Shown here in pieces: positions 7,138-33,871 of a DNA stretch of 64,000 nt. Source of the DNA: Chloroflexota bacterium (GTDB lineage: Bacteria; Chloroflexota; UBA6077; FW602-bin22; JBCLEL01); assembly GCA_965220775.1 (NCBI GenBank), contig OZ244845.1:2066568-2130567 (forward strand), read 5' to 3'. The stretch's first letter is position 1; every line of letters begins with the position of its first letter. The position numbers were made by a program, and so were the translations under genes. The notes under the pieces were generated by a model that was given only the letters and a program-made list of their open reading frames with translations, searched no databases and was not told where the DNA came from.

Positions 7138-8706
7138 TCAATCAATCGGCTCGAAGAAGGTCAGGTCGGCGCCGAAGTTATCCATTGCTATGACCTGATC
7201 CCCACGGAGTTGTACGCGGATCTGCCTGGTGCGGTGAGCGAGGGTTATTTCCTGCTCCGGCAGAGGAAACTCGAAGTAGAGTGTCCGATTCACCGGAGGC
7301 CGGGCGATGAATAGATGTCCGTTGGTGTACCGTGGGGCCTCGGCTGCTCCGCGTATCGCCGTGCTTTTGTGGTTCACCCAGGTCGGCACTCGTACGAAGA
7401 GCGGTCCCGGTCGTTTTATCCTGATCCCCAGGTTCGGATGAGTGTATGGAGACTCAACCTCTATCGCGGCAGTCTCGTGGTCGAAGAGCAGATTTACCCA
7501 GTGGCCCGCTTGGTCAAAGCGCGTCGCTTCCCGGTAGACCTCGCATAGCGATCCCACCGCACCGCCGACGATGTCCATATTGAAGGAGACCCGGTCGGCC
7601 CCGATTGGTTCGTGTCCGTAGGGCGCTGGAAAGCCGAACGCTCCCAGGTGCCGGCCGGCGATATCGCGCTTGCTATCCTCAATGTCCGGATTTGAGGGAT
7701 TTGCGATGAACGAGACGTCGCGCAGTTGGGACGGCAGGAGGTGGCTCCGCACGATTCGCTCGGCGTCCTGGTAGTACTCAGGAAATCCCCAGCGTCCCAA
7801 AATGAGCGCAGTCTCAACGATGTCGCCGGTGTTATTCACTTCGCCCCGATCGGGGTCGGCATCTGGGCCGGAGCTCTCAATGACCCATCCCAACTCGTCT
7901 CGGATATCCCAAAGCCCTCTGTCGTAGAATGCCTTCACTCGTAGTATGAGGCCGGCGTCAGACGTCAGGTCGGCCAGTTGGGCCAGAGACGACATAACAC
8001 AGGTGGTCGAGTGGGTATGATGGCCGAATGTCTCTCTGTCGTAGGACCCGTCCTCGGTGAAGAACATGTCCACCGCCTTGTTCCTTAGTACGACTGCCAA
8101 CTCCAGGGCCGGGCCGTATCCTGTAGCGCGGTAGTATTTGACCAGTGGGCCTATTGCCCTGCCCAATCCGATGACAAAAGTCGGAGACTCCTGGAAACTA
8201 ATCCCGTGTACTCGTTCGAGCCGTTCGCGATCCCAGTCCCGGTCGGGATCCCAAAGCTCGAAGATCGCCGCGATGCTCGCTTCTGCCAGCCGGCGGGCCT
8301 TCGTTGAGTCACGGTATTTGGCCAAAGCAAATAGCGCGTGAAACCCTTCGCGAACATTGTGTGGAACGAAGTTCACCAACGGGCCGGCGACATCAGAGCG
8401 ATTGAGCGGCAAGGGCGCCGGGCCGCTATAGGAGAGAAATGCGGCGTGGGCGTGACTATCGACCGCGTCCTCGTCGATGTGGATGCCGGCCGCATCTTCG
8501 GCGTTTAGCAGGGCATTCAGGTGGCGTCCGGGGACGTGTGCTTCCGAATGGACTGGGCTGAAGCTGAGACCCGGGTCCGGGCGCACCAATGAACCGAAAA
8601 ATGGTATGTCGTTATCATCTGCGTTGAATACGGACGACATCGTTCGGCAGCCCAGTCGAATCGCTTCGCGAATATCGTTTGTATTGACGTGTCTAAGCTT
8701 GACCAT
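7138..8706 (-). CDS. Hypothetical protein (522 aa, soluble)
   Basis: Long ORF with good coding character, 20 nt downstream of the AKR gene on the same strand. No motif that I can assign with confidence. Confidence 0.5.
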   Translation of the reverse strand: MVKLRHVNTNDIREAIRLGCRTMSSVFNADDNDIPFFGSLVRPDPGLSFSPVHSEAHVPGRHLNALLNAEDAAGIHIDEDAVDSHAHAAFLSYSGPAPLPLNRSDVAGPLVNFVPHNVREGFHALFALAKYRDSTKARRLAEASIAAIFELWDPDRDWDRERLERVHGISFQESPTFVIGLGRAIGPLVKYYRATGYGPALELAVVLRNKAVDMFFTEDGSYDRETFGHHTHSTTCVMSSLAQLADLTSDAGLILRVKAFYDRGLWDIRDELGWVIESSGPDADPDRGEVNNTGDIVETALILGRWGFPEYYQDAERIVRSHLLPSQLRDVSFIANPSNPDIEDSKRDIAGRHLGAFGFPAPYGHEPIGADRVSFNMDIVGGAVGSLCEVYREATRFDQAGHWVNLLFDHETAAIEVESPYTHPNLGIRIKRPGPLFVRVPTWVNHKSTAIRGAAEAPRYTNGHLFIARPPVNRTLYFEFPLPEQEITLAHRTRQIRVQLRGDQVIAMDNFGADLTFFEPID

Positions 8707-8839
8707 AGAATCCTGAGCGATGTCGTCGAATTGACGGAAATTCGGCCACTGCTACCCATTGACACCGTCTTAATGTTAGCAGGTGTGCCTCGGCAATATG
8801 CTCCAGGTGTATACTCCGGTAGAGGGCTAGGCGTTTACG

Positions 8840-9232
8840 ATGGCTGAACCTACGTTGAGCAACGCGAATCAGACGATCCCGGCCGGCTCACGCATCCTGA
8901 TGGTGACCGGCGATCTGATATTTAGCTCTAAAGTTGATGCCCTTGCGCGGCAAGCCGGCGTTTCCTTCGAGGTTGTACGTGCTGGTCGATTGGCAAATGC
9001 CGGGACGGCGCAAGACGCCTTTGCTCTGGTAGACATGGCGAACATGGATGCAACTCACGTTGAGTCTGCGGTCGGACAGTTGAAAGAGTTAGGGGCGGAT
9101 CGCATCGCCGTCTTCGGCCGGCACGACCGAGCGGACCTCCGCAACGCCGCGCTCGAAGCCGGCGCGGCCGATTGGTGGCCGAACTCTAAGATGTCGGCCC
9201 GAATGCGGACTCTTCTGGGTTTGACTCTCTAA
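8840..9232 (+). CDS. Hypothetical protein, possibly CheY-like receiver fold
   Basis: 130 aa. The pattern RILMVTGDL...ALVDMAN...AVFGRH...AGAADW loosely follows a receiver-domain beta/alpha layout. Weak call. Confidence 0.35.
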   Translation: MAEPTLSNANQTIPAGSRILMVTGDLIFSSKVDALARQAGVSFEVVRAGRLANAGTAQDAFALVDMANMDATHVESAVGQLKELGADRIAVFGRHDRADLRNAALEAGAADWWPNSKMSARMRTLLGLTL

Positions 9233-22409: not shown

Positions 22410-22828
22410 AATTGCTTCCTCTATAGCTAGGTTGCTTACTTAGACTAATTATCGGAGGCAATCCTTCGAACCGAATTAAGTGATTGTTAAATATCAGTTA
22501 TATCAGCCGGCGATTCCCATGGGCGGAATCCCTTATGTTTGCTGGCGAATTTGGCGGCATTCATTCTTGCTCGTAGTTACATTCTAACGCCAATTCGAAG
22601 TAGATGCCTGGCAATTTGCTAGTACTTTTGTGGACGAAAGCCAGTTGACATAGTGACTCGGTCAAGTTGATTACGAATCACCACGAGCATTAGGTATGGC
22701 ATCTGCAATTTCATCCATCCCAGATACGCCGGCTGTTACTTGATTGCAGTTAACCGAACTCGGATTGGGCCTCGAGACTATGCGGCTGTATGACTCAGGA
22801 AGGAGTTCCTGGTCGGGCGATTCCGAAT

Positions 22829-24357: not shown

Positions 24358-25230
24358 TTGAGTGCGGTTCACCTGGACGATCGAGGGCGGCGTAGTCGGA
24401 TTGGAGCCCATGTGTCTGTGGCCGGCGGGTTGACCAAGGGCGTCGATAGAGCTTTGGACATAGGCGCTGAGTGTATCCAGATATTCGTCGGCGCACCCCA
24501 ACGTTGGAGCACCGCCAAGTATACGGATGACGAGGCGCGGGAGTTCAAACAGGCGGTCGACGAGAACGACCTCAACCCAGTCTTCATACACGGGCCTTAT
24601 TTGGTGAACCTCGCCTCCAAGCGTGGTGACGTGCGGGCAATCTCTCGCCGAGTGCTGGTCAGCCAGTTGGAATGGGCCGAGAAACTGGGCGCCGAAGGCG
24701 TGATAGTCCATGTCGGCAGTGGCGGCGACAACGCGTTGGATCTGGCCGAAGCCGGCCTGCGCGAAGTTCTCGGCAATTACCGAGGTCCCGCCAAGTTCTT
24801 GCTGGAAAACGACGCCGGCGCTGGCCAGCGCATTGGCAAGCGTTTTAGCGAGATCGGCCGGCTGATCAAAGCGGCTGACAACGACGAGCGGCTCGGTGTC
24901 TGCTTCGACACCTGCCACGCCTTGGTCTCCGGCTACGAGATTCGCGACCGCGATAGTCTAAGTGCTGCTATGGAGGAGTTCGACGCTGAAATAGGGCAGG
25001 ATAGACTGGTGGTCGTCCACGCCAACGACTCAAAGGGCGACTTGGGTTCGAATAAGGACCGTCACGAGAACATCGGCAAGGGTGAAATCGGCGAGGATAG
25101 CTTTGAGATAATCCTCTCTGATAAGAACCTGCGGGGGCTGCCGTTCGTGCTCGAAGTGCCGGGCTACGAGAAGGGTGGGCCAGATGCCCGCAACATCAAG
25201 GACTTGATCCGGCTGGCTGGGGGAAGTTAG
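24358..25230 (+). CDS. nfo: Endonuclease IV (deoxyribonuclease IV)
   Basis: RIGAHVSVAGG, LLEN.AG and HANDSKGDLGSNKDRHENIGKGEIG. TTG start with GGAGAGG upstream. Confidence 0.85.
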   Translation: MSAVHLDDRGRRSRIGAHVSVAGGLTKGVDRALDIGAECIQIFVGAPQRWSTAKYTDDEAREFKQAVDENDLNPVFIHGPYLVNLASKRGDVRAISRRVLVSQLEWAEKLGAEGVIVHVGSGGDNALDLAEAGLREVLGNYRGPAKFLLENDAGAGQRIGKRFSEIGRLIKAADNDERLGVCFDTCHALVSGYEIRDRDSLSAAMEEFDAEIGQDRLVVVHANDSKGDLGSNKDRHENIGKGEIGEDSFEIILSDKNLRGLPFVLEVPGYEKGGPDARNIKDLIRLAGGS

Positions 25231-26456
25231 GGTTCTTGGTTATCGCTTTCCGGTTCCTGTCCTTCGAAATGATCGTAGACCAGTAGGGATAGCTCTGCGA
25301 TCTGCTTGACTTCCCAGGCTTTGTCGGACATGACGACAAGCACGTAAGGCGCAGTTGGCGCATAGACGATTCCGACGTCGTGAGTGGCGCTTGGCCAGTT
25401 TCCGGTCTTATGAGCTACTCGAATGCCGGCCGGCAATAGGGCCGGAAGCCGGTCGTTGACTCTCTGGCGTGTCATCAGATCTACCATGTCCTGACTCGCC
25501 CGTTCATTGATGGCTCCGCCTAGCGCCAACATCTCCAACAGCAGCGCCGTGTCTTCAGCCGTGGTGGGTAGGTCTCCACGAACCAGGGCCGAATTCTCCA
25601 TGCCTATGGCCTCGATGTCTTGGTTGATATTCCATCCGCCAACTTTGTCGTGCAACATAATCGCGGCTACGTTGTCGCTGACAGTTATCATCGCCTCCAT
25701 CAAATTGCCAATTGGCACTTCGGTCCATAGCGGCCAAGCCAACTCACCGAGCTGGTAATCGAGATGGAACGGCACTAGTGTCACCGTCTCGTCGAATGCC
25801 AATAGGCCTAGCTCCCGCTGCCTGAATACTTCGTACATCACCCATAGCTTGAATACGCTTGCCGCGTAGAATTCTTTGTCTGGGTTGATCGCCACTCCCC
25901 GACCATCGGTTACCCGTTTCACCACTATCCCGTACCTGGGAATGTCCTCCCCTAGATGTTGCGTAATTTTCGCCTCCAGCGCGGCGTCATGTTGCAGCGG
26001 TATCGGTTCGTAGCGTGGCGACGGCGTCAGCCCGTATGGCCCCCGAATCCGGGTGACGGTTATCGTGACAGTGACCGTCGTCTCTGGTTGAGCTGTCGGT
26101 GTTCTGTACGCGATGAGGGCCGGCGTGGCGCCGCTCGGATAAACGATGATTGTTCCAGTCGCCGTGGCTTCCGGCGAAACTGAAACTGTAGGTTCACTCG
26201 CGGTAATGGTACTGATCGGCGTAGGCGAGCTTTCTGGTGTAGGACTTGGAGGCGGCGAGGCCGTCGCCGCTCTCGTGGCGGTAGGGATGGGCTCTGGAGT
26301 AGCCGGAGTTGCCGAAGGAGTAGCCGCCGCACTAACGGCCGTCTGCCTGATCGCCCAAACGGCGTCAAATGGTCCGCTACAGCCGAGAATTATCAGCAGC
26401 GAAACAATCACGGGAACTATTCCGATTAAGGCGCGCTGCCTCAGGGCCATTCTCAT
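25227..26456 (-). CDS. Membrane-anchored class A beta-lactamase-like serine hydrolase with Pro/Thr/Ser-rich linker
   Basis: SxxK (ASVFK), SDN (VSDNVAA) and KTG (HKTGNW). I prefer the ATG at 26456 (MRMALRQRALIGIVPVIVSLLIILGCSGP), which gives a signal anchor. Confidence 0.65.
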   Translation of the reverse strand: MRMALRQRALIGIVPVIVSLLIILGCSGPFDAVWAIRQTAVSAAATPSATPATPEPIPTATRAATASPPPSPTPESSPTPISTITASEPTVSVSPEATATGTIIVYPSGATPALIAYRTPTAQPETTVTVTITVTRIRGPYGLTPSPRYEPIPLQHDAALEAKITQHLGEDIPRYGIVVKRVTDGRGVAINPDKEFYAASVFKLWVMYEVFRQRELGLLAFDETVTLVPFHLDYQLGELAWPLWTEVPIGNLMEAMITVSDNVAAIMLHDKVGGWNINQDIEAIGMENSALVRGDLPTTAEDTALLLEMLALGGAINERASQDMVDLMTRQRVNDRLPALLPAGIRVAHKTGNWPSATHDVGIVYAPTAPYVLVVMSDKAWEVKQIAELSLLVYDHFEGQEPESDNQEP

Positions 26457-26724
26457 GTGTAACCTCGCCGGCCGACTGCCTGAACTTGAGGCTAAGCGGA
26501 TATGAGTTGTCGCCCGCCGGCTTGTGACTGCCGGCGCGTCGCTTCGTTCTCTATTGATCTGTACAACTGTACCCTGTCTTGGCAAGCGTTGGTGGACCAG
26601 TGACCGACTAAGGCAACAACAGAGGTGGAGCCTCACATGCGGAGTTGAGATTCAAGGTGAACGCCAGCCCTCGTCCTCCGGCATCATGCGCTCTGCCACC
26701 GATCCTCGCGTTGGGAGAATCGTG

Positions 26725-27690
26725 TCACTCTGGACTGGCGCTGTTGCCGCGTGATTCTTCAAGTCTCTCCTCATCGTCCGCGTCCCTAGAACTACTCTTG
26801 GAACCCCATCCTCCGAGCCTCCAAATTAGGAGGCCGATAAGCCCTATCACGATAACGTAGCCGACGATCTGTGCTATTTCATCCACGATTGATTGGCCGG
26901 GTAGCAGGTCCTCAAGCACTAACGCGGCTATTCCGGTCAATATGCTCACTATCACTATGGTTATCACTAACCACATTGAGTTGAGAAAGCGATCGAGAAC
27001 GAGGCGAGCCGTTCGTCGCAACCGCGCGAGCTGGGGTGCTGCCTCGGCCGGCTTGGGTTTTTCGGGTGTGCTGCTCTTGCCTGTAACAATCACTTCGACG
27101 ACGCGGGCTAATCCATCTCGGAACAGTGGCGCTAGCTGGTCACCATTGTCGAAGCCGTAGTAGAAAGTGCTAGACGCACCTGGGCTCTGGCCTCGTACCC
27201 ATGCTAATAGGCGCCGCCATATTGTCGGGTTTCCCAAGCTCGCACGAAAATCGTCGACTTTGGCCTGCGCCTCAAGGTTCTGCAACGGCGGCCCTTCCGC
27301 ATCCTTGAAGAAGAACAAGCATTCACATGTGTGCTTGTAGTAGAAGCTCTCGTACGCACGCTCGAACTCTTTTACTGTCCCAGCACCCACCCAGGAAGGA
27401 GGCGGCGCATGGAAATGCCCCCATAGCAACCCTACGAAAATGTTGTAGTCGTTCGCCGATGGCTTCTCTCTACTAGGGTCCGAGTCTACGTGTACGCCGG
27501 GCCCGAAAGGCTTGCTCTCCCATTTCACCAAATCCAGATAAATGTTGAACGTTTTCATCCATACCTGGTTCAGATCGCGAATGACATTCTCTATCAGTTC
27601 GCGCTCCGGCCGAACCTCTTCCGGCGATGCGATGAGCACCGTTAACGCTCTTGGTGTAATTGACTTGTCCGCGCCAGGCTCGGTCGCCAT
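26725..27690 (-). CDS. DUF4062/TIR-like N-terminal domain protein with two C-terminal TM helices
   Basis: N-terminus VLIASPEEVRPERELIENVIRDL...YNIFVGLLWGHF...GTVKEFERA...FFFKD resembles the DUF4062/TIR-like Rossmannoid pattern (from memory). The C-terminus has two clear hydrophobic helices (WLVITIVIVSILTGIAALVL and IVGYVIVIGLIGLLIW) and an acidic tail. Confidence 0.4.
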   Translation of the reverse strand: MATEPGADKSITPRALTVLIASPEEVRPERELIENVIRDLNQVWMKTFNIYLDLVKWESKPFGPGVHVDSDPSREKPSANDYNIFVGLLWGHFHAPPPSWVGAGTVKEFERAYESFYYKHTCECLFFFKDAEGPPLQNLEAQAKVDDFRASLGNPTIWRRLLAWVRGQSPGASSTFYYGFDNGDQLAPLFRDGLARVVEVIVTGKSSTPEKPKPAEAAPQLARLRRTARLVLDRFLNSMWLVITIVIVSILTGIAALVLEDLLPGQSIVDEIAQIVGYVIVIGLIGLLIWRLGGWGSKSSSRDADDEERLEESRGNSASPE

Positions 27691-28113
27691 GATTGAGTTC
27701 TAACCTCTCAATTGCTCGGCAATCCAACGTCCAACGAAACTTATCGCCAAGACCCTCCGAAACGAGGAGACTCCATCCCTATCTCGGGTTTGTAGACCGC
27801 TCTGACCCATGCTGCTTCAGATGCAACGAAGCACCGTAGGCCTTCCAGCGTGGTCCCATAATCTAGTCCCAATTGCGGAGTCCAAAGCAATTCTCGATCC
27901 GGGCGAAAGTGTCCGTCAATTTGAATGCAGAAAAGCTAAGGCCGCACCAATTTGCTTAATGATTGCGCGTTAATGCAAGTATAGTTCAGCGATTTTGCAA
28001 AACAAGCTGGCCTTTGGACCTGCGTGGACACCGGTGCCAATTTACCCCGGAATGGAGCCGTGTTTAGGCATCTGTCTGAAAAGCGAGTACAAGCCGGTCC
28101 CTGAAACGCCGGC

Positions 28114-31100
28114 CTAGGGCATAATACGGCGGATAGAAATCTCTACCTCGGCACCGCCGAGATTAAGCGGTTCCGAGTGGAATCCGGCCCCAGCCGATCC
28201 CCGCATCGTCTTGGTGGCTAGAGTTTCTCGGCCGATATAGTCGTTGAAGTCCTCGAAGACTTTCTCCATTGCCGGACCGCCGGAGTAGCGCAACTCGATC
28301 CTATCGGCGATGTCGAAGCCGGCGGTTTTGCGCATGGTCTGAATTCGGTGAGCTAGCTCGCGGGCAATGCCTTCGTTGAGCAACTCCTCGGTCAGATCCG
28401 TATCTATCGCAATCGTCAAGCCGTGATCCGAGGCGACGGCAAGTCCCGGCCTATCGACCTTCTGCACGTCCACCTCCTCTGGCAGAAGCGTAAAGCCATC
28501 CAATGGTATCTGCTTACCGTCCTGCACCATGTTGCCGATTACCTTTGGATCGGCGGCCTCGAGTAGCGCCGTGATTCTTCGTAGGTCGCGGCCATATTTT
28601 GGTCCGAGCAGTGGCGTTTTCGGCCGGATAGAGTAAGAAGTGAGTGCGCCGGCATCGTCCGTCACCCTAAGAGCCTTCGCGTTCAGCTCCTCGAGACATT
28701 GATTGGCTAATCGCTGCATTATTTCCGCCTCGGCCTCGTTGCGCGCCGCCACCACCAGTTCGCCGACCGGCTGACGCACCTTGATGCCGGCCTTATTTCG
28801 CGCGGATCTGCCCAAATTCACCACCTGTTGTACTATGCCCATTTCGACCAACAGGCGTTCATCGATCGCTTCGGCGGCGACAGTTGGATAGCCGTTGTGG
28901 TGTACGCTATCCGGCGCCTTACGATCCACCTTACGCACCAAGTTCTGGTAGATCGACTCTGACAGGAAAGGCGTAATTGGGGCCATCAGCTTGGCCAAGG
29001 CAACCAACGTCTCGTATAGCGTCAGATAGGCGGCCAACTTGTCGCTATCGGCTTCCGACTTCCAGAAGCGGCGCCGGCTCCGGCGAACGTACCAATTCGA
29101 CAGATCTTCTAGAAACCCCTCGATCGCTCGCGTCGCGGCAGCCGGCTGGTAGTCGCCTATGCTCTGGTCGACCGACTCGGTTAGCCGATTCAGCTTGGCG
29201 ATAATCCAGCGGTCGAGCTCGGACCGCTGTGGCAGCGGTAGATCATGCTCCGTCGGGTCGAACTGATCTATGTTCGCGTATGTGATCCAGAACGAGTAGA
29301 CGTTCCACAGCGTCAAGATGCGACGTCTCGTCTCGTTGGCCAGACCATAGCCGAAGTTGAGATTCAGGGATGGGTTCTGGCTGGTGTAGATCCAGCGCAT
29401 CACGTCGGCGCCCATCTCTTCGGCCGCATCGTCAAACCAGATCGCGTTCCCGAGACTCTTGTGCATCGCGCGGCCTTGCTCGTCTTGTAGCTTCTCAAAG
29501 ACGAATACGGTCTTGTAAGGGGCCCGGTCCTCCAGTGTTACGCTCATGAAGAGCAAGGAGTAAAACCAGAGCCGGATCTGCTCGCGCATCTCCAGCACCA
29601 GGTCCGCCGGAAACCATTTCTCCCAATACTCGCGGTCGGTCAGATAGCGCAAAGTCGAGAACGGGACAATGCCGGCGTCAAGCCAGCAGTCTCCCACCGC
29701 CGTGATGCGTGATGCCTCCCCGCCGCAACCGGGACAGCGGATCTTGATCGTGTCGATCCAAGGACGATGCAGCTCCGGCACGTTGGTCAGATCCTCGGTC
29801 GCAAGGCTAGCTAGCTCATCGCGCGACCCGACTATCGTTAGCTCGCCACAGTCGCAGTCATAGAACGGCAGCGGCAATCCCCAGAACCGCTTGCGCGAAA
29901 TGCACCAGTCGCCCATATTGTTGAGCCAGTCCTCCATTCGCTTGCCCGCATAGTCCGGGACCCATCGGACCGTGCGCGACGCTTCGATCATTCGCGGCCG
30001 GATCTCGCCGGCGCTGATGAACCACTCATCTACAAGCTTGAACACGAGTTCGGTTTGACACCGCCAACAGACCGGATAGCGATGGGATATGGACTCTCGT
30101 TTGTAAAGGAAGTCGCGCTGGTTTAGATCTGTCGCCACCGGGTCCGGCGCGTCGTGCGCGTGGATGCCAGTAAGTTCACCGAAACCAGCCACGAAATTGC
30201 CGTCGTCGTCAATCGGCACGATTGCAGGCAGCTCTTCAACCTTCGATAGCTCGTAGTCCTCCGCGCCGCAGCCAGGTGCGATATGGACGATTCCGGTGCC
30301 CTCTAGCTCGTTGACTTCATCCCAACCGACGATACGGTGCTCAATGCCGCCGACCGCCGGCAGGTGGTCGAAGGGGCCTTCGTATCGCCATCCGATCAGT
30401 TCTTGGCCTTTCATAGTCGCCAAGACCTCGTAGTCGCCGGCGAGCATGTCGATGGTACCCTTGCTCAGGTAGTAAGTGCGGTCTCCTTGGCGTACTTTGA
30501 CGTAGTCCAGCTCTGGATGGACGGCGCAGGCCACGTTCGCCGGCAGGGTCCAGGGAGTCGTGGTCCACACCACCAGATACTCGCCCGGCCGGTCCTTTAT
30601 CGGCAATCGAAGATAGATGGACGGATGGGTCACGTCGCGATAGCTGTCTATCAGCTCGTGTTGGGAGAGTGATGTGCCGCACCGGGTGCACCAGGGCATC
30701 GAGGTATGACCCTTGTAGAGCCAGCCGTTTTCGGCGCACTTCTTCAGGAAGTGCCAGATGTATTCGACGTTTGTGTCTGACATCGTGTAGTACGAGTCGT
30801 CCCAGTGCATCCACTGGCCCAGCCGAATCGATTGCTCGGTTTGTACACCGCTGAACTTATCTACGCGGGCGCGGCATTGAGCCGAGAACCTGTCGAGACC
30901 GAAGCGCTCGATTTCGCGTTTGGAGTCCAGACCAAGATCCTTCTCAACCTCCACCTCGACCCAAAGCCCCTGGCAGTCGAAACCGTTCTGGTAGCGTTGA
31001 TCCTTGCCGTGCATGGCCTGGTAGCGTTGAAAGATGTCCTTGTAGGTGCGTCCCCACGCGTGGTGCGCGCCCATCGGATTGTTGGCCGTAATAGGACCAT

Positions 31101-31269
31101 CGATGAAGGAGAAAGTGTCCTTGTCTCGGTTATTCTTGACTAACGTCTCGAAGCTGCCAATGCGCTTCCAAAAGTCTAGTATCTCGCGCTCCAATGCCGG
31201 AAAATCCGGCTTCGAACTGACCGGGTCGAATAACAATTTTGTACCCCCTAAGAAAACTCCAAGTGTCAT
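28114..31269 (-). CDS. ileS: Isoleucine--tRNA ligase
   Basis: 1051 aa with class I signatures (ANNPMGAHHAWGRT HIGH-like, MHKSLGN KMSKS-like), editing-domain length, and a zinc-knuckle region CPGCGG. It is preceded by an Ile-specific T-box. Confidence 0.95.
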   Translation of the reverse strand: MTLGVFLGGTKLLFDPVSSKPDFPALEREILDFWKRIGSFETLVKNNRDKDTFSFIDGPITANNPMGAHHAWGRTYKDIFQRYQAMHGKDQRYQNGFDCQGLWVEVEVEKDLGLDSKREIERFGLDRFSAQCRARVDKFSGVQTEQSIRLGQWMHWDDSYYTMSDTNVEYIWHFLKKCAENGWLYKGHTSMPWCTRCGTSLSQHELIDSYRDVTHPSIYLRLPIKDRPGEYLVVWTTTPWTLPANVACAVHPELDYVKVRQGDRTYYLSKGTIDMLAGDYEVLATMKGQELIGWRYEGPFDHLPAVGGIEHRIVGWDEVNELEGTGIVHIAPGCGAEDYELSKVEELPAIVPIDDDGNFVAGFGELTGIHAHDAPDPVATDLNQRDFLYKRESISHRYPVCWRCQTELVFKLVDEWFISAGEIRPRMIEASRTVRWVPDYAGKRMEDWLNNMGDWCISRKRFWGLPLPFYDCDCGELTIVGSRDELASLATEDLTNVPELHRPWIDTIKIRCPGCGGEASRITAVGDCWLDAGIVPFSTLRYLTDREYWEKWFPADLVLEMREQIRLWFYSLLFMSVTLEDRAPYKTVFVFEKLQDEQGRAMHKSLGNAIWFDDAAEEMGADVMRWIYTSQNPSLNLNFGYGLANETRRRILTLWNVYSFWITYANIDQFDPTEHDLPLPQRSELDRWIIAKLNRLTESVDQSIGDYQPAAATRAIEGFLEDLSNWYVRRSRRRFWKSEADSDKLAAYLTLYETLVALAKLMAPITPFLSESIYQNLVRKVDRKAPDSVHHNGYPTVAAEAIDERLLVEMGIVQQVVNLGRSARNKAGIKVRQPVGELVVAARNEAEAEIMQRLANQCLEELNAKALRVTDDAGALTSYSIRPKTPLLGPKYGRDLRRITALLEAADPKVIGNMVQDGKQIPLDGFTLLPEEVDVQKVDRPGLAVASDHGLTIAIDTDLTEELLNEGIARELAHRIQTMRKTAGFDIADRIELRYSGGPAMEKVFEDFNDYIGRETLATKTMRGSAGAGFHSEPLNLGGAEVEISIRRIMP

Positions 31270-31289
31270 CCCTTGGTCCGATAGCAGCC

Positions 31290-31322
31290 AAAAAATAAGC
31301 TCTCGTCCATAGGGACGAGAGC
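31290..31322 (-). terminator. T-box attenuator terminator
   Basis: On the minus strand, gctctcgtcc-ctat-ggacgagagc is followed by TTATTTTTT. Its 5' arm (ctctcg) can alternatively pair with cgagag of the T-box to form the antiterminator. Confidence 0.75.
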
Positions 31323-31545
31323 CAATACTCTCGCGGTACCACCCTAACTAGCAGGTAGCTCGCTCATCAAGGGCGCGCAACCCTACGGTTGTAGGCCCCC
31401 GCCGGCGTTAACGATCGGCGACTCCGTCCGCGTCTACTCGGCTCTACGCGTTTCGGGCGGATGCTCAGGAATGATTTTCAGCCGGATAGCCGGCCCGCTT
31501 TCACCATCCGCGGGCTCTCTGATCGGTCTTCTCGCAGCTTACTCG
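31290..31545 (-). promoter_or_regulatory. T-box riboswitch leader, Ile specifier (AUC)
   Basis: The minus strand contains the canonical T-box AGUUAGGGUGGUACCGCGAGAG (31331-31350), an AGAGAG bulge, a GGUGAAAG distal loop, and the specifier context GAAA-AUC-A (codon at 31473-31475). It lies directly upstream of ileS. Confidence 0.8.
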
Positions 31546-31583
31546 TTTCCCTCGTAGCAGCTTCGATATTGACTTGTCGCCTG

Positions 31584-31613
31584 ATTCTAGGGCCTCGTGC
31601 CGCATTAAGTCAA
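31584..31613 (-). promoter_or_regulatory. Putative sigma-70 promoter of the ileS leader
   Basis: Minus strand TTGACT (31608-31613), 18-nt spacer, TAGAAT (31584-31589). Confidence 0.5.
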
Positions 31614-31824
31614 TCGCCCCGCCGCCGATTCAGGGGGTTTCAATTCTTTAATATTTAGGACTTCTAGAGTATTTTCCTAGGCCGACAAGCAGTTGGTCGA
31701 AACAGTCAACCAACCAAGGCCATTTCGATAGTCCGCAAACCGCATGTCGTCATTCCTGCGAAGGCAGGAATCCAGAGGAGAGGGGGGAGGCACGACCACC
31801 GCCAACCTTTGGTGACAACGAAAG

Positions 31825-32070
31825 TTAGAGAATCAAAAACCCCTGCGCCGATTGCATAATTGACCAACGACTAACGTATTTTGCAGCCATCCGCTCTAAC
31901 TTGACCCAATCCCTCCACCCAACAATGTCCAACTCATATGCTGAAAATATCTTGCCTGTTGTACCATATGCGTGCGATATTTTCATAAATACTGCAACTG
32001 AGTTGCAAAGGCCTATCTTGAGAATCTTGGCGATTAGTGATGGTCGATGAGAATCATCCAGTTGATTCAC
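31825..32070 (-). CDS. Small hypothetical protein (81 aa) in an AT-rich patch
   Basis: The only ORF in a visibly low-GC stretch. It is divergent from the XRE/ImmA gene. No motif; coding status is uncertain. Confidence 0.3.
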   Translation of the reverse strand: MNQLDDSHRPSLIAKILKIGLCNSVAVFMKISHAYGTTGKIFSAYELDIVGWRDWVKLERMAAKYVSRWSIMQSAQGFLIL

Positions 32071-32163
32071 TTGGCCCGATGATCGAATGAGTGGTGATTA
32101 CCGCCAGCTAGGATTCTCCAGTGCCGCAGATCCGTGTGAGCTCGCGGCGATGAGGAATATGTC

Positions 32164-33303
32164 GTGAGTCTTGACAACGCTACTATTGGGTCCCGCCTTC
32201 GAGCCGCCCGCCGGACTCTGGTTCTCACGCAGACCGACGCCGGCAGCCATATGGGAATGGTCACTTCTACGGTTTCGGCCATAGAGGCCGGCAAACGCAG
32301 CGCAACTGGTTCTGAACTGTACGAGTTCTCCCAGCTATACCAACGACCAGTCGCCTACTTCCTTCAAACGGAAGACTTGTCGTCCTCCCCCGGGTTCCAG
32401 TACCTTTTCCGGCGAGTGGACGACACAGTACTCGACCGCTCCCCAATCGTCGAGCTCGAGAGCCTTGCGTCCGACTACGATCTTCTCGAGGACCTTGTTG
32501 GCGTATCTCCCCCTCCATTGCCGCCCGACTACTCTAGCTTTGAGTTTAGAGGAGAGAAGGACGCGGAAGCGCTAGCTGAAATGGAGCGCGTCCGGCTTGG
32601 TCTCGGTGACGCTCCGGTCAAAGACCTCGTCGACCTCTTGGACGGTAATGTCGGCATCCGGGTTTTTATGTTGCCAGTTGGTCAAAAAAGCTTGTCCGGC
32701 CTAGTTGTCCAAAGTCGTAGCGGTCGCCCTTGTGTCTTGGTCAACTCCACCGAAATCCACTATCGACGCAACTTTACCTTGGCCCACGAATACGCTCACG
32801 CATTGGTTCATCTCTCGGAACCATCTGCACCCAAGGCCTGGATCGACTTCTCTTCGAAGAGCAACAGGAAGGATCCGGAGGAGCGCTTCGCTGACTCGTT
32901 CGCCGCCGCGTTCTTGATGCCGAGACGCGCTGTCTTCTCCCAACTTAATCTCATGGCGCGCGGTAGAGCAAAGGAGTTTAAGGATAGTGATTGGGCGCAT
33001 CTGGCTATGCACTTTGGCGTAAGCGGGCAGGCCATGTCCCTACGACTTGTGACCCTTCGCAAACTTTCCAGGCAAGCCCAAAGAGACTACTGGGAGCAAA
33101 GATCCTTTAAGCCAATCGCCGAGGCCTTGGGATACGAAGTCGAGGATGAAGATTGGACAGAGCATGCCATTTTGCCCCCTCGCTACCGCTATCTCGCTAT
33201 GAGAGCTTACGAAGAGGACACCATCTCTCTTTCAAAGCTGGCGGAGTTGCTCAGAGAGGATTTCTACGAATTGCGCGATAGGCTGCATAACATTGCAGAA
33301 TGA
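32164..33303 (+). CDS. XRE-family HTH fused to ImmA/IrrE (M78, DUF955) zinc metallopeptidase
   Basis: N-terminal HTH (IGSRLRAARRTLVLTQTDAGSHMGMVTSTVSAIEAGKR), central HExxH (LAHEYAHALVH), and downstream ERFADSFAAAFLMP, typical of ImmA/IrrE. GTG start. Confidence 0.8.
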   Translation: MSLDNATIGSRLRAARRTLVLTQTDAGSHMGMVTSTVSAIEAGKRSATGSELYEFSQLYQRPVAYFLQTEDLSSSPGFQYLFRRVDDTVLDRSPIVELESLASDYDLLEDLVGVSPPPLPPDYSSFEFRGEKDAEALAEMERVRLGLGDAPVKDLVDLLDGNVGIRVFMLPVGQKSLSGLVVQSRSGRPCVLVNSTEIHYRRNFTLAHEYAHALVHLSEPSAPKAWIDFSSKSNRKDPEERFADSFAAAFLMPRRAVFSQLNLMARGRAKEFKDSDWAHLAMHFGVSGQAMSLRLVTLRKLSRQAQRDYWEQRSFKPIAEALGYEVEDEDWTEHAILPPRYRYLAMRAYEEDTISLSKLAELLREDFYELRDRLHNIAE

Positions 33304-33370: not shown

Positions 33371-33871
33371 GTGCCGGCTGCACTCCCTACCCGCATAGTC
33401 CTCGACAATTCCGTGATCTCCGCGCTCCGCGAAGCGGAATCGTTGTCGAGAGTGTTGGGGTTCTGGCCGGCACGATGGATAGTTCCCTTACAGGCCAGAG
33501 ATGAGGCAGCGGCGTGGAAGCTTCAAGGAGCGAAAGTCGTTGCCATTCTCGACTCGCTAGGGCGGGAGTCGGTCGTCGAGTTGGCATCGGTTGAACCGAG
33601 AATCGAGGGCCCCCTACTTGTCCGCTTGCAGCGTACGCTAGGGCAGGGAGAGTCGGGGTCAATCGCAATCGCGTTTCACCGCGCGGCTTGGGTTGCTACC
33701 GACGACCGGCGGGCTCGCCGGGCGTGCGACGAACTATCGCCAAGGGTGCGGTGGGTCTCCACCGAGAGGCTGCTCGGCCTGGCGGTAACTGATGGATTCC
33801 TCACACAGACCCAAGCGGAGGAGGTTTGGTCCGCAACCAAGATCCGAGACCCAAAGAGACGCATCCCGTAA
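33371..33871 (+). CDS. PIN-like (DUF3368-type) predicted nuclease
   Basis: IVLDNSVI (Asp on the first strand), GESGSIAIA, and ATDDRRARRAC..L...V..TE.LL match the layout of PIN/DUF3368 proteins. It begins 67 nt after the XRE/ImmA gene. Confidence 0.55.
   Translation: MPAALPTRIVLDNSVISALREAESLSRVLGFWPARWIVPLQARDEAAAWKLQGAKVVAILDSLGRESVVELASVEPRIEGPLLVRLQRTLGQGESGSIAIAFHRAAWVATDDRRARRACDELSPRVRWVSTERLLGLAVTDGFLTQTQAEEVWSATKIRDPKRRIP

Follow-up and report, generated by a model that had tools for sequence, protein, structure and literature searches.

The DUF4062 domain is a TIR-like NADase found in the anti-phage systems Swarozyc, Evangelion, Vulcan, Vesta, and Avs2, where it hydrolyzes NAD+ to ADPR and nicotinamide, needs a conserved Glu, and is activated by an accessory domain (10.64898/2026.05.01.722283, 10.64898/2026.09.04.749371, 10.64898/2026.06.25.731849). 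The role of DUF4062/NIR as an NADase effector was first recognized in 2026, and the sensor partners described in the main text of the preprints are soluble ones: HEAT repeats, STAND-TPR modules, a helical AUX domain, or a phosphatase operon (10.64898/2026.05.01.722283, 10.64898/2026.09.04.749371, 10.64898/2026.06.25.731849). Swarozyc (KpSwz) is a single-gene anti-phage NADase that joins DUF4062 to an auxiliary domain (10.64898/2026.05.01.722283), and Evangelion (Eva01) is a plasmid-borne DUF4062 core with a short AUX, the catalytic Glu of which is described as an "E-Y" pair, E87-Y88 (10.64898/2026.06.25.731849).

Within a 64,000-nucleotide stretch of Chloroflexota DNA (here called the window), we analyzed a gene for a 321-aa protein that appears to place such a domain on a membrane anchor (Table 1). 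Our main reading, to which we assign a probability of about 0.45, is that the gene encodes a membrane-tethered DUF4062/NIR TIR-like NAD+ glycohydrolase that is normally silent. The ORF list and translation confirmed the open reading frame of the preliminary description, which starts at ATG and contains all of the motifs quoted there (VLIASPEEVRPERELIENV, DYNIFVGLLWGHF, GTVKEFERA, and FFFKD). Since its frame and length are maintained in eight homologues (56-100% identity) and dN/dS is 0.10-0.25 for enzyme core and membrane hairpin alike, this is a real gene under purifying selection. Over the hairpin, dN/dS was 0.11-0.20 in diverged pairs, the window and L013 sequences, which are nearly identical, gave 0.34, and the linker and juxtamembrane segment was the fastest-changing part of the protein (dN/dS of 0.3-0.7). 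The gene is also the fastest-evolving member of its conserved neighborhood, with 62-68% protein identity where IleRS has 87-88% and nfo 83-88%. The hairpin-bearing NIR family is so far known from just one narrow clade of uncultured Chloroflexota.

Table 1. Features of the NIR-hairpin locus, in window coordinates
Feature	Position	Strand	Basis
Membrane-anchored DUF4062/NIR protein, complete CDS (321 aa + stop)	26725..27690	(-)	ORF list, homologues, dN/dS
Divergent DUF4062/NIR TIR-like domain, residues ~14-203	27082..27651	(-)	PADLOC, family profile, hhalign, AF2
Glu108 codon, predicted catalytic Glu in G104-T105-V-K-E108-F109	27367..27369	(-)	Motif conservation
Family-specific betaC-alphaC loop W90-G-H-F-H-A-P-P-P-S-W-V, residues 90-101	27388..27423	(-)	Alignments
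Variable Pro/Lys-rich linker, then Arg-rich juxtamembrane segment, residues 204-229	27004..27081	(-)	Sequence, dN/dS, pLDDT
Predicted transmembrane helix 1 (TM1), residues 239-259, MWLVITIVIVSILTGIAALVL	26914..26976	(-)	Hydrophobicity, charge, conservation
Predicted transmembrane helix 2 (TM2), residues 272-291, IAQIVGYVIVIGLIGLLIWR	26818..26877	(-)	Hydrophobicity, conservation
Predicted cytoplasmic C-terminal tail, residues 292-321	26728..26817	(-)	Alignment and charge pattern
Promoter-like site TTGACG-18-GAGAAT of the NIR gene	27890..27919	(-)	Consensus scan and conservation
Putative ~195-nt 5' leader	27691..27885	(-)	Small conserved hairpin adjoining the ribosome-binding site
Downstream spacer: promoter-like element, 5'UTR, Shine-Dalgarno	26457..26724	(-)	Seven-lineage alignment

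The DUF4062/TIR-like reading of the N-terminal head proved correct. When the family profile was aligned by hhalign with 30 relatives, nearly all of them carrying the PF13271 annotation, the match had 99.95% probability and an E value of 1.7e-38 over 172 columns (columns 12-203). The N terminus of the PADLOC profile PDC-S60 matched residues 16-154 (E 1.1e-20), and of the 2874 proteins that hmmsearch retrieved with the family profile, 968 reached E<=1e-10; relatives at about 1e-27 mostly pass PF13271, and relatives in the large database carry DUF4062 annotation. Eight of 10 tested relatives passed the Pfam PF13271 gathering score of 24.7 bits, and the other two fell just under it. The link to DUF4062 was made by hhalign and the family profile; neither PF13271, for the window protein or any of the eight family members, nor the TIR, TIR_2, and TIR-like Pfam models (STIR clan), for the window protein, gave a match at E up to 10. 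Scans of the protein against Pfam, NCBIfam, and PHROGs returned only weak matches driven by the transmembrane helices, with no DUF4062, TIR, or holin among them, and single-sequence and profile searches of the PDB found nothing relevant, the copy searched holding no DUF4062 structure. Because PF13271 does not match the 321-aa protein, profile methods were needed for the assignment, and by these comparisons residues ~14-203 are homologous to DUF4062 as a divergent copy.

The elements of the head are predicted to follow the order betaA-alphaA-betaB-BB loop-betaC-alphaC-betaD-alphaD-betaE-alphaE, with a family-specific insert (residues 155-175) before betaE. An AF2 model built on a 127-sequence alignment contained five strands alternating with flanking helices (pLDDT 75, pTM 0.71), with pLDDT below 50 around residues 209-225; an 8-sequence alignment gave an unusable pLDDT of 41. 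Foldseek matches in the PDB and BFVD included TIR domains (3jrn, 7jlx, and Cat1 9mue) and viral nucleoside deoxyribosyltransferases (NDTs), with many unrelated Rossmann-like folds scoring equally and no TM-score above 0.55, so that a TIR/NDT-like Rossmannoid fold fits without being discriminated from other folds. The comparison with TIR structures that the preliminary description had proposed yielded a compatible five-strand model but did not single out TIR.

E108 is the predicted catalytic Glu, and the core residues of the family are retained. The catalytic Glu was assigned by its conservation in divergent DUF4062 proteins; KpSwz, sought by plasmid tblastn to fix residue numbering, was not found. 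The G-T-x-x-E motif is nearly invariant across the 127 sequences and shows no change even when DUF4062 proteins as divergent as those on plasmids of Enterococcus and Salmonella are compared, in alignment with which the positions of G-T-x-x-E-[FY] are the sole invariant ones in the region. E108 is kept in seven of the eight family members, the remaining one (P0008) having Asp. Core residues S22, P23, E29, R30, N41, W57, E58, D69, F85, G87, and W90 are present, as are G104, T105, E108, F109, Y/F127, F128, K129, and F148, and S-P..E-R after betaA, W-E ending betaB, F-x-G-x-x-W in betaC, and Y-F-K in betaD are all family-invariant.

The betaC-alphaC loop stands in place of the superfamily consensus W-x-R-F-G-T-P-T-x-R-A. 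Within the family H92, F93, H94, P96-P98, S99, and W100 are invariant where relatives have RFGTPTxR, and the change to HFHAPPPSW removes both conserved loop arginines beside the catalytic helix. In addition, position 107, where the usual E-E-F begins with Glu, is Lys throughout the family, and the betaA aromatic residue at the position of Eva01 F11 is Leu in the window protein; Leu or Met at this position is seen in ordinary relatives too. The HFH-PPPSW loop next to the active site may bring altered regulation or substrate preference.

The two hydrophobic helices and acidic tail noted in the preliminary description were both borne out. Kyte-Doolittle 19-residue maxima reached 2.92 for TM1 and 2.42 for TM2, against a threshold of 1.6. 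TM1 has no charged residues and is conserved in sequence; its N-terminal flank holds five K/R and one D/E, the 12-residue acidic loop (residues 260-271) before TM2 holds no K/R and four D/E, and TM2 is followed by K/R and then the acidic tail, so that the flanks obey the positive-inside rule. Invariant positions in the TM2 region are G277, Y278, L284, G286, L288, I289, and L292-W295, and the tail consists of a conserved LGGWGSK motif and then a variable acidic stretch. These features mark a conserved two-helix hairpin, the charge pattern of which predicts that both ends are cytoplasmic. No other hairpin of this kind was seen among 257 relatives examined, and the NIR head is fused to it where a soluble auxiliary or sensor domain usually sits.

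Flanking spacers of about 420 and 270 nt had been reported, and we measured 423 nt upstream (27691-28113) and 268 nt downstream if the next gene begins at ATG 26456, the start called in related genomes. Their description as AT rich was overstated: the upstream spacer is slightly GC poor at 51.3%, which falls near the 3rd percentile for windows of 400 nt, whereas the whole stretch averages 57.7%, and the downstream spacer, at 58.6%, exceeds this mean. Nor is the layout unusual for its surroundings, as nearby intergenic gaps are about as long or longer (22410-22828, 419 nt; 31270-32163, 894 nt). The consensus scan found one promoter match upstream, and shuffled sequence would yield as many by chance; TTGACG-18-GAGAAT carries weight instead because both hexamer regions, and the invariant block directly following them (TTGGACTCC), are conserved over six to seven otherwise diverged lineages. 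Transcription is predicted to start near 27885. The small leader hairpin reads GGATTGCCGAGCAATT in the window and GGATTGCCGAGYAATC in relatives. An Rfam scan of the upstream spacer gave no match at E up to 10, RNAalifold of the leader over seven lineages was weak (-9.6 kcal/mol) with almost no covariation (term of -0.4), and the single-sequence fold had a z of -2.3; a known riboswitch was rejected, and a novel structured RNA was unsupported. The downstream spacer likewise yielded neither an Rfam match nor persuasive covariation. A 49-aa leader ORF (27741-27890) was rejected because indels between lineages are not multiples of three. The downstream spacer contains a conserved promoter-like element, TTGCCA-16-TACAGA, at about 26558-26585; it also holds CCGAGGT, the Shine-Dalgarno sequence from which the next gene, for a beta-lactamase-like lipoprotein, would be translated. 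Both spacers are ordinary promoter and 5'UTR regulatory DNA with no special elements. With its own conserved promoter-like site and a separate one for the downstream gene, the NIR-hairpin gene is probably monocistronic.

These separate sites, together with the neighborhood comparison, agree with the earlier observation that the gene has no operon partner. In every homologue the gene order is IleRS, the NIR-hairpin gene, the beta-lactamase-like lipoprotein gene, nfo, an aminotransferase gene, and a two-component system, and about seven distinct lineages, spanning dS > 1, all carry the gene at this same site, with no absences and no mobile-element hallmarks seen among them. The gene appears to be inherited vertically within the clade. 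Outside the clade, the closest homologues of the beta-lactamase-like neighbor (51-62% local identity) showed no synteny at all, and a JGI metagenome scan with the neighboring gene as query found nothing, as did a scan of IMG/VR viral contigs for family relatives. No signal-generating partner gene (cyclase or TIR) lies in the neighborhood, and the sole defense-like neighbor is a Rosmer-like RmrA/PIN pair 4.5 kb away. In a paralogue located amid HEPN/MNT toxin-antitoxin genes, this NIR subtype is coupled with a DnaJ J-domain. The locus is a conserved housekeeping neighborhood, neither an operon nor a variable defense island. The homologue survey proposed in the preliminary description revealed no link to defense islands; conserved non-defense operons, which it had named as evidence against its reading, were matched in the housekeeping surroundings but not in operon structure. 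Because defense genes turn over quickly, a fixed location is atypical of them, but location alone is weak evidence against a defense role since about 80% of bacterial DUF4062 genes lie outside recognizable defense islands (10.64898/2026.05.01.722283).

By analogy with the described systems, an anti-phage role of the membrane-tethered NIR protein is plausible. As with the Swarozyc, Evangelion, Vulcan, and Avs2 proteins, resting cells would keep the enzyme inactive, and its NADase would be turned on by bringing copies together. Because the hairpin replaces a soluble auxiliary or sensor domain, activation might occur when copies cluster laterally within the membrane. The trigger would then act at the membrane or envelope; examples are the entry of a phage, a membrane protein that it makes, and damage to the envelope. 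The conflict-system reading of the preliminary description, under which the protein may function in abortive infection, fits the 2026 literature on DUF4062/NIR as an NAD+-depleting anti-phage effector, but housekeeping synteny and vertical inheritance speak against it. A fuller model would have a TIR-like NADase fixed as a core chromosomal gene, with the hairpin as a sensor that clusters upon membrane or envelope perturbation (phage entry, depolarization, or envelope damage) to cause NAD+ depletion and with the loop possibly changing product or substrate; we consider this specific combination unlikely.

The same evidence bears on a domesticated, non-immune role in this Chloroflexota lineage, whether in membrane NAD+ turnover or signaling, dormancy control, or envelope-stress signaling, which we regard as possible if somewhat doubtful. 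Strict synteny in every sampled lineage and the lack of viral relatives favor domestication, as does the eukaryotic DUF4062 protein TEP1, which works in non-defense machinery (10.64898/2026.05.01.722283), but every experimentally studied bacterial DUF4062 protein is an anti-phage effector, and most bacterial DUF4062 genes lie outside islands anyway. Purifying selection fits a domesticated gene, yet no gene in its neighborhood evolves faster. The DnaJ-NIR paralogue points both ways, with an architecture that is chaperone linked rather than classically defensive and a position among toxin-antitoxin genes.

Two further alternatives differ in which part of the protein would act. The hairpin could itself be the killing effector, with NIR as a nucleotide-binding or oligomerization module driving a membrane lesion, as for 2TM effectors (those of CBASS, type II Thoeris, or type III CRISPR) or for class II holins; with two helices arranged N-in/C-in and a charged tail, the hairpin resembles the latter. 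Sequence-level conservation, small-residue packing motifs, the invariant LGGW, and purifying selection on the hairpin argue for this, and the hairpin had its best PADLOC matches in the 2TM modules that form the N termini of TM-SAVED (E 3.6e-4) and of membrane-associated CARF effectors (E 5.8e-3); these matches are weak, however, confined to hydrophobic segments, and probably driven by composition. With no PHROGs holin family match, no signal-generating partner nearby, and a retained catalytic Glu and core motifs suggesting that the enzyme itself matters, we judge a hairpin effector improbable. Conversely, the protein might be a catalytically inactive pseudo-enzyme that uses the NIR fold as a membrane scaffold or ligand sensor. 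Loss of both loop arginines, the family-wide Lys107, Asp for the catalytic Glu in P0008, and the betaA Leu would suit such a protein, but the substituted betaA residue also occurs in ordinary relatives, and the replaced loop is family-invariant, suggesting changed rather than lost function. As E108 is otherwise retained and G-T-x-x-E-F, W-E, and S-P..E-R are intact, we consider inactivity very improbable.

A membrane-anchored NIR would add a new enzyme-trigger coupling. If the hairpin is indeed a sensor, the protein would be the first membrane-gated DUF4062/NIR member, one that published surveys built on Pfam do not detect. Because the Pfam model misses the entire hairpin-bearing branch, domain-based NIR censuses are incomplete; at least one, the Evangelion survey, is explicitly PF13271 based (10.64898/2026.06.25.731849). 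Fixed at a syntenic site in a phylum that has received little study, the gene could also serve to test whether "immune" NADases become domesticated in bacteria, non-immune domestication having already been suggested for eukaryotes by TEP1.

Compared with known systems, the window gene shows neither the defense-island or mobile-element location nor the patchy distribution typical of NIR systems. It shares with 2TM effectors (TM-SAVED/CARF, type II Thoeris ThsA, and PycTM) a nucleotide-related soluble domain and two membrane helices, but the TM module of such effectors usually lies at the N terminus, accompanied by a ligand-sensor domain and a partner cyclase or TIR gene, whereas the window hairpin is C-terminal, its soluble domain is enzyme-like, and it has no partner gene. 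About 140 N-terminal positions of the 906-position PDC-S60 profile match, the remaining ~765 having no counterpart here. Vulcan, Vesta, and NIR-Avs2 likewise have an N-terminal NIR effector with a conserved catalytic Glu, but their HEAT repeats, alkaline-phosphatase partner, or STAND-TPR sensors are absent here (10.64898/2026.09.04.749371).

The nearest sequence relatives, proteins of ~390-400 aa that are 33-39% identical over the domain, join an N-terminal DUF4062 to a C-terminal region of helices and may well have the Swarozyc architecture. Swarozyc and the window gene are both single genes with the same catalytic Glu context, and hhalign against the relatives extends to alphaE and the start of the stalk. 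The alignment ends at ~203, however, and the helical AUX/portal-binding domain of Swarozyc, by which the phage portal is sensed and without which defense is lost, is replaced by the linker and two-helix hairpin. The window protein also differs in its betaC-alphaC loop and 20-residue insert before betaE, and the window gene, the family of which is confined to one Chloroflexota clade, sits in a conserved housekeeping neighborhood and not in a defense island. Like Evangelion, the window gene encodes a small DUF4062 core with a short C-terminal region, which is essential in Evangelion, and has a catalytic Glu-aromatic pair, E87-Y88 in Eva01 and E108-F109 here. Evangelion is carried on mobile elements, plasmids among them, and has a soluble AUX, whereas the window gene is chromosomal, syntenic, and predicted to be membrane anchored. 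The hairpin-fused NIR is thus a modestly new version of a known DUF4062/NIR kind.

The window gene is an intact 321-codon ORF with an ATG start, its translation contains every motif quoted in the preliminary description, and we found eight homologues of equal length (56-100% identity) in a collection of 5.8 billion proteins. Overall pairwise dN/dS was 0.10-0.25; across diverged pairs, the enzyme core gave 0.08-0.21 and the membrane hairpin 0.11-0.20, with relaxation only in the Pro/Lys-rich linker (0.3-0.7). These findings establish the ORF as a real gene and show that it is under purifying selection. P0009, a 122-aa protein in the representative library, is identical to the family member P0004 over its first 86 residues and then continues out of frame; this truncated copy is a frameshifted pseudogene, or else one sample was misassembled.

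Searches of Pfam, NCBIfam, and PDB sequences with the window protein returned just weak matches driven by the transmembrane helices. The first lead came from the PADLOC candidate system PDC-S60, whose first 141 of 906 positions matched residues 16-154 (E = 1.1e-20). A family profile, made from the first 215 residues of the window family and searched against 1.84 billion representative proteins, retrieved 2874 proteins at E ≤ 0.001 and 968 at E ≤ 1e-10, most of them approximately 390-410 aa long and matching at the N terminus. Eight of ten relatives tested exceeded the Pfam PF13271 gathering score, with the other two just below, and large-database counterparts of the tested relatives are annotated "DUF4062 domain-containing protein." Although the Pfam DUF4062 model itself matched none of the eight window-family members, profile-profile comparison of the family with 30 relatives, nearly all Pfam-annotated as DUF4062, gave 99.95% probability (E = 1.7e-38; 172 columns, query residues 12-203). 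Every core position is retained in this alignment (S22-P23, E29-R30, N41, W57-E58, D69, F85-x-G87-x-x-W90, G104-T105-x-x-E108-F109, Y/F127-F128-K129, and F148). At the level of sequence profiles, these comparisons show homology of the N-terminal domain to an NADase family, DUF4062, bearing out the DUF4062/TIR-like head proposed earlier. DUF4062 has been renamed NIR and established as a TIR-like NADase (10.64898/2026.05.01.722283, 10.64898/2026.06.25.731849, 10.64898/2026.09.04.749371). An AF2 model from 127 sequences (pLDDT 75, pTM 0.71) has five strands alternating with helices, and its Foldseek matches include TIR domains (3jrn, 7jlx, Cat1) and viral nucleoside deoxyribosyltransferases. The modeled fold is compatible with a TIR-like fold, but TM-scores were ≤0.55 and many other Rossmann-like folds scored equally, so that the structural comparison did not discriminate.

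The catalytic region reads E-E-F in relatives versus K-E-F in the window family, and alignment with divergent plasmid DUF4062 proteins of Enterococcus (SGTIAEI) and Salmonella (SGTVEEI) leaves G104, T105, and E108 as the sole invariant positions there. Because of this invariance of E108 and the description of the Eva01 catalytic residue as an E-Y pair (10.64898/2026.06.25.731849), we assign E108-F109 as the putative catalytic position; the predicted catalytic glutamate is retained in the window protein. One family member, P0008, has Asp at position 108. The loop from betaC to the catalytic helix is W-G-H-F-H-A-P-P-P-S-W-V-G-A-G-T in the window family versus W-x-R-F-G-T-P-T-x-R-A-G-S-G-T in relatives; both arginines are gone, and the new motif is invariant among family members. 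The family also has a 20-residue insert with a basic helix (155-175) ahead of betaE.

Following alphaE are a variable linker, an Arg-rich juxtamembrane stretch, the two-helix hairpin, and the acidic tail. Both hydrophobic segments are strong (19-residue Kyte-Doolittle maxima of 2.92 and 2.42), confirming the two helices and acidic tail noted previously. Helix 1 is flanked on its N-terminal side by 5 K/R versus 1 D/E, the 12-residue inter-helix loop has 0 K/R and 4 D/E, and K/R residues precede the tail after helix 2, a charge pattern that predicts in-out-in topology with the N-terminal domain and tail both cytoplasmic. The hairpin is conserved in the window family and, among the 257 relatives retrieved, was found only in its eight members.

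Coordinates of the window gene and of features discussed with it
Feature	Position	Strand	Remarks
Response-regulator/aminotransferase intergenic region	22410-22828		419 nt; lowest GC of the neighborhood, 45.8%
nfo	24358-25230	+	convergent; 4-nt overlap with 3' end of lipoprotein gene
Class-A beta-lactamase-like lipoprotein (downstream neighbor)	25227-26456	-	predicted; LGC lipobox, long Pro/Thr-rich linker, serine-hydrolase domain with SxxK, SDN, KTG motifs
Window gene	26725..27690	-	
Conserved block just upstream of ribosome-binding site	~27712-27735	-	upstream-spacer alignment A6 columns ~270-295; TTGGATTGCCGAGCAATTGAGAGG in window, ...GAGYAATCGAAAGGA in relatives
Sigma-70-like site, upstream spacer	27919-27890	-	TTGACG-18-GAGAAT; consensus match
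IleRS gene	28114-31269	-	
T-box leader, directly upstream of IleRS gene	31308-31564	-	Rfam RF00230, 103 bits, above gathering score
HTH + M78-peptidase gene	32164-33303	+	PADLOC RmrA (Rosmer antitoxin-like, E 1.2e-26) and capP matches
DUF3368/PIN-like gene, follows HTH/M78 gene	33371-33871	+	166 aa
P0010, paralogue-like DnaJ-NIR gene	L017/L018 (loci of related genomes) 8001-8981	+	same assemblies as window-family genes

The spacers around the window gene have the lengths previously reported (423 nt upstream; 268 nt downstream, taking 26456 as the start of the next gene), but calling them AT-rich was an overstatement, with GC contents of 51.3% upstream and 58.6% downstream versus 57.7% for the window. 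Because nearby intergenic gaps measure 419 and 894 nt, long spacers are normal here, and the layout is not the unusual one it had been taken for. A single sigma-70-like match is what chance alone would yield, and it is conservation that gives the site weight: the two hexamer regions are kept across lineages and followed by an invariant TTGGACTCC, with the remaining spacer diverged by many indels. The check for a structured RNA in 27691-28113 gave little support: the predicted ~195-nt leader had no Rfam match and a weak consensus structure (-9.6 kcal/mol) with almost no covariation support (covariation term of -0.4); its single-sequence fold z-score was -2.3. The sole conserved leader structure is a small hairpin adjoining the ribosome-binding site, where the conserved block can fold as GGATT/AATC and might serve as a protein- or ribosome-access element. 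The downstream spacer has a promoter-like element that is conserved in its own right, as well as the Shine-Dalgarno sequence for the lipoprotein gene. The two spacers consist of ordinary regulatory DNA; the window gene is most likely a monocistronic, stand-alone transcription unit, consistent with the reported lack of an obvious operon partner. The T-box leader explains some of the long, lower-GC stretch between the IleRS and HTH genes.

The window comes from an uncultured Chloroflexota bacterium, and only 2 of 185,579 GTDB species representatives contain a full-length relative; a JGI metagenome scan with the neighboring gene and an IMG/VR scan for viral relatives gave no match. At each locus recovered (approximately seven distinct lineages, dS up to >1), the order was IleRS, spacer, window gene, spacer, lipoprotein, nfo, aminotransferase, OmpR-type regulator, and histidine kinase, placing the window gene outside any defense island. 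Within this block, the window gene evolves fastest (62-68% identity versus 87-88% for IleRS, 83-88% for nfo, and 77-79% for the lipoprotein), and the closest lipoprotein homologues in outgroups share just 51-62% local identity without synteny. Past IleRS, 4.5 kb from the window gene, is the RmrA-like HTH/M78 and DUF3368/PIN pair. Identity of the HTH/M78 gene drops to 77-80% in genomes that share 96-100% in the other genes of this region, and in L004, the locus of a related genome, the genes that separate the pair from IleRS are different ones; because of this variation, the site looks like a variable toxin-antitoxin or defense hotspot.

The closest relative outside the family, P0010 (E = 2.3e-40), has a DnaJ J-domain ahead of the same NIR subtype, lacks membrane helices, and keeps the catalytic motif G-T-V-D-E-F. 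Its gene lies between the cox and nuo operons, with toxin-antitoxin-type genes (HEPN/MNT and DUF433) on either side, and in one case P0010 and a window-family member probably belong to the same genome bin.

We tentatively favor, with a probability of roughly 0.45, a model where the window protein is a membrane-tethered, autoinhibited DUF4062/NIR NADase fired by assembly. The resting enzyme would be autoinhibited by analogy with Swarozyc, in which the BB loop occludes the pocket (10.64898/2026.05.01.722283), and activation would occur when copies assemble. Lacking a soluble sensor, the protein would most obviously rely on its hairpin to sense or to drive assembly in the membrane plane, and firing would lead to NAD+ depletion and growth arrest. 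The main rival, a domesticated, non-immune role, draws on the fixed housekeeping synteny and the existence of the J-domain paralogue, and we consider it rather unlikely. It seems improbable that the hairpin itself is a pore-forming effector, and slightly more so that the NIR domain is a pseudo-enzyme.

In known systems, DUF4062 is the effector of Swarozyc, where it is paired with AUX and activated by the phage portal (10.64898/2026.05.01.722283), and of Evangelion, with a plasmid-borne DUF4062 core and AUX (10.64898/2026.06.25.731849). NIR effectors also occur in Vulcan (HEAT repeats), Vesta (phosphatase partner), and some Avs2 proteins (10.64898/2026.09.04.749371), and DUF4062 of human TEP1 is active as well (10.64898/2026.05.01.722283). 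The main texts of 10.64898/2026.05.01.722283, 10.64898/2026.06.25.731849, and 10.64898/2026.09.04.749371 do not use "transmembrane" or "membrane-anchored" of DUF4062. Both the domain family and what it does biochemically are already known, though only since 2026, and the window gene is a reasonable experimental target rather than a categorical surprise. Relative to known DUF4062/NIR members, the C-terminal partner of the window family, a linker and membrane hairpin, is new; this membrane-anchored architecture is accompanied by an altered active-site loop, restriction to one Chloroflexota clade, and invisibility to Pfam.
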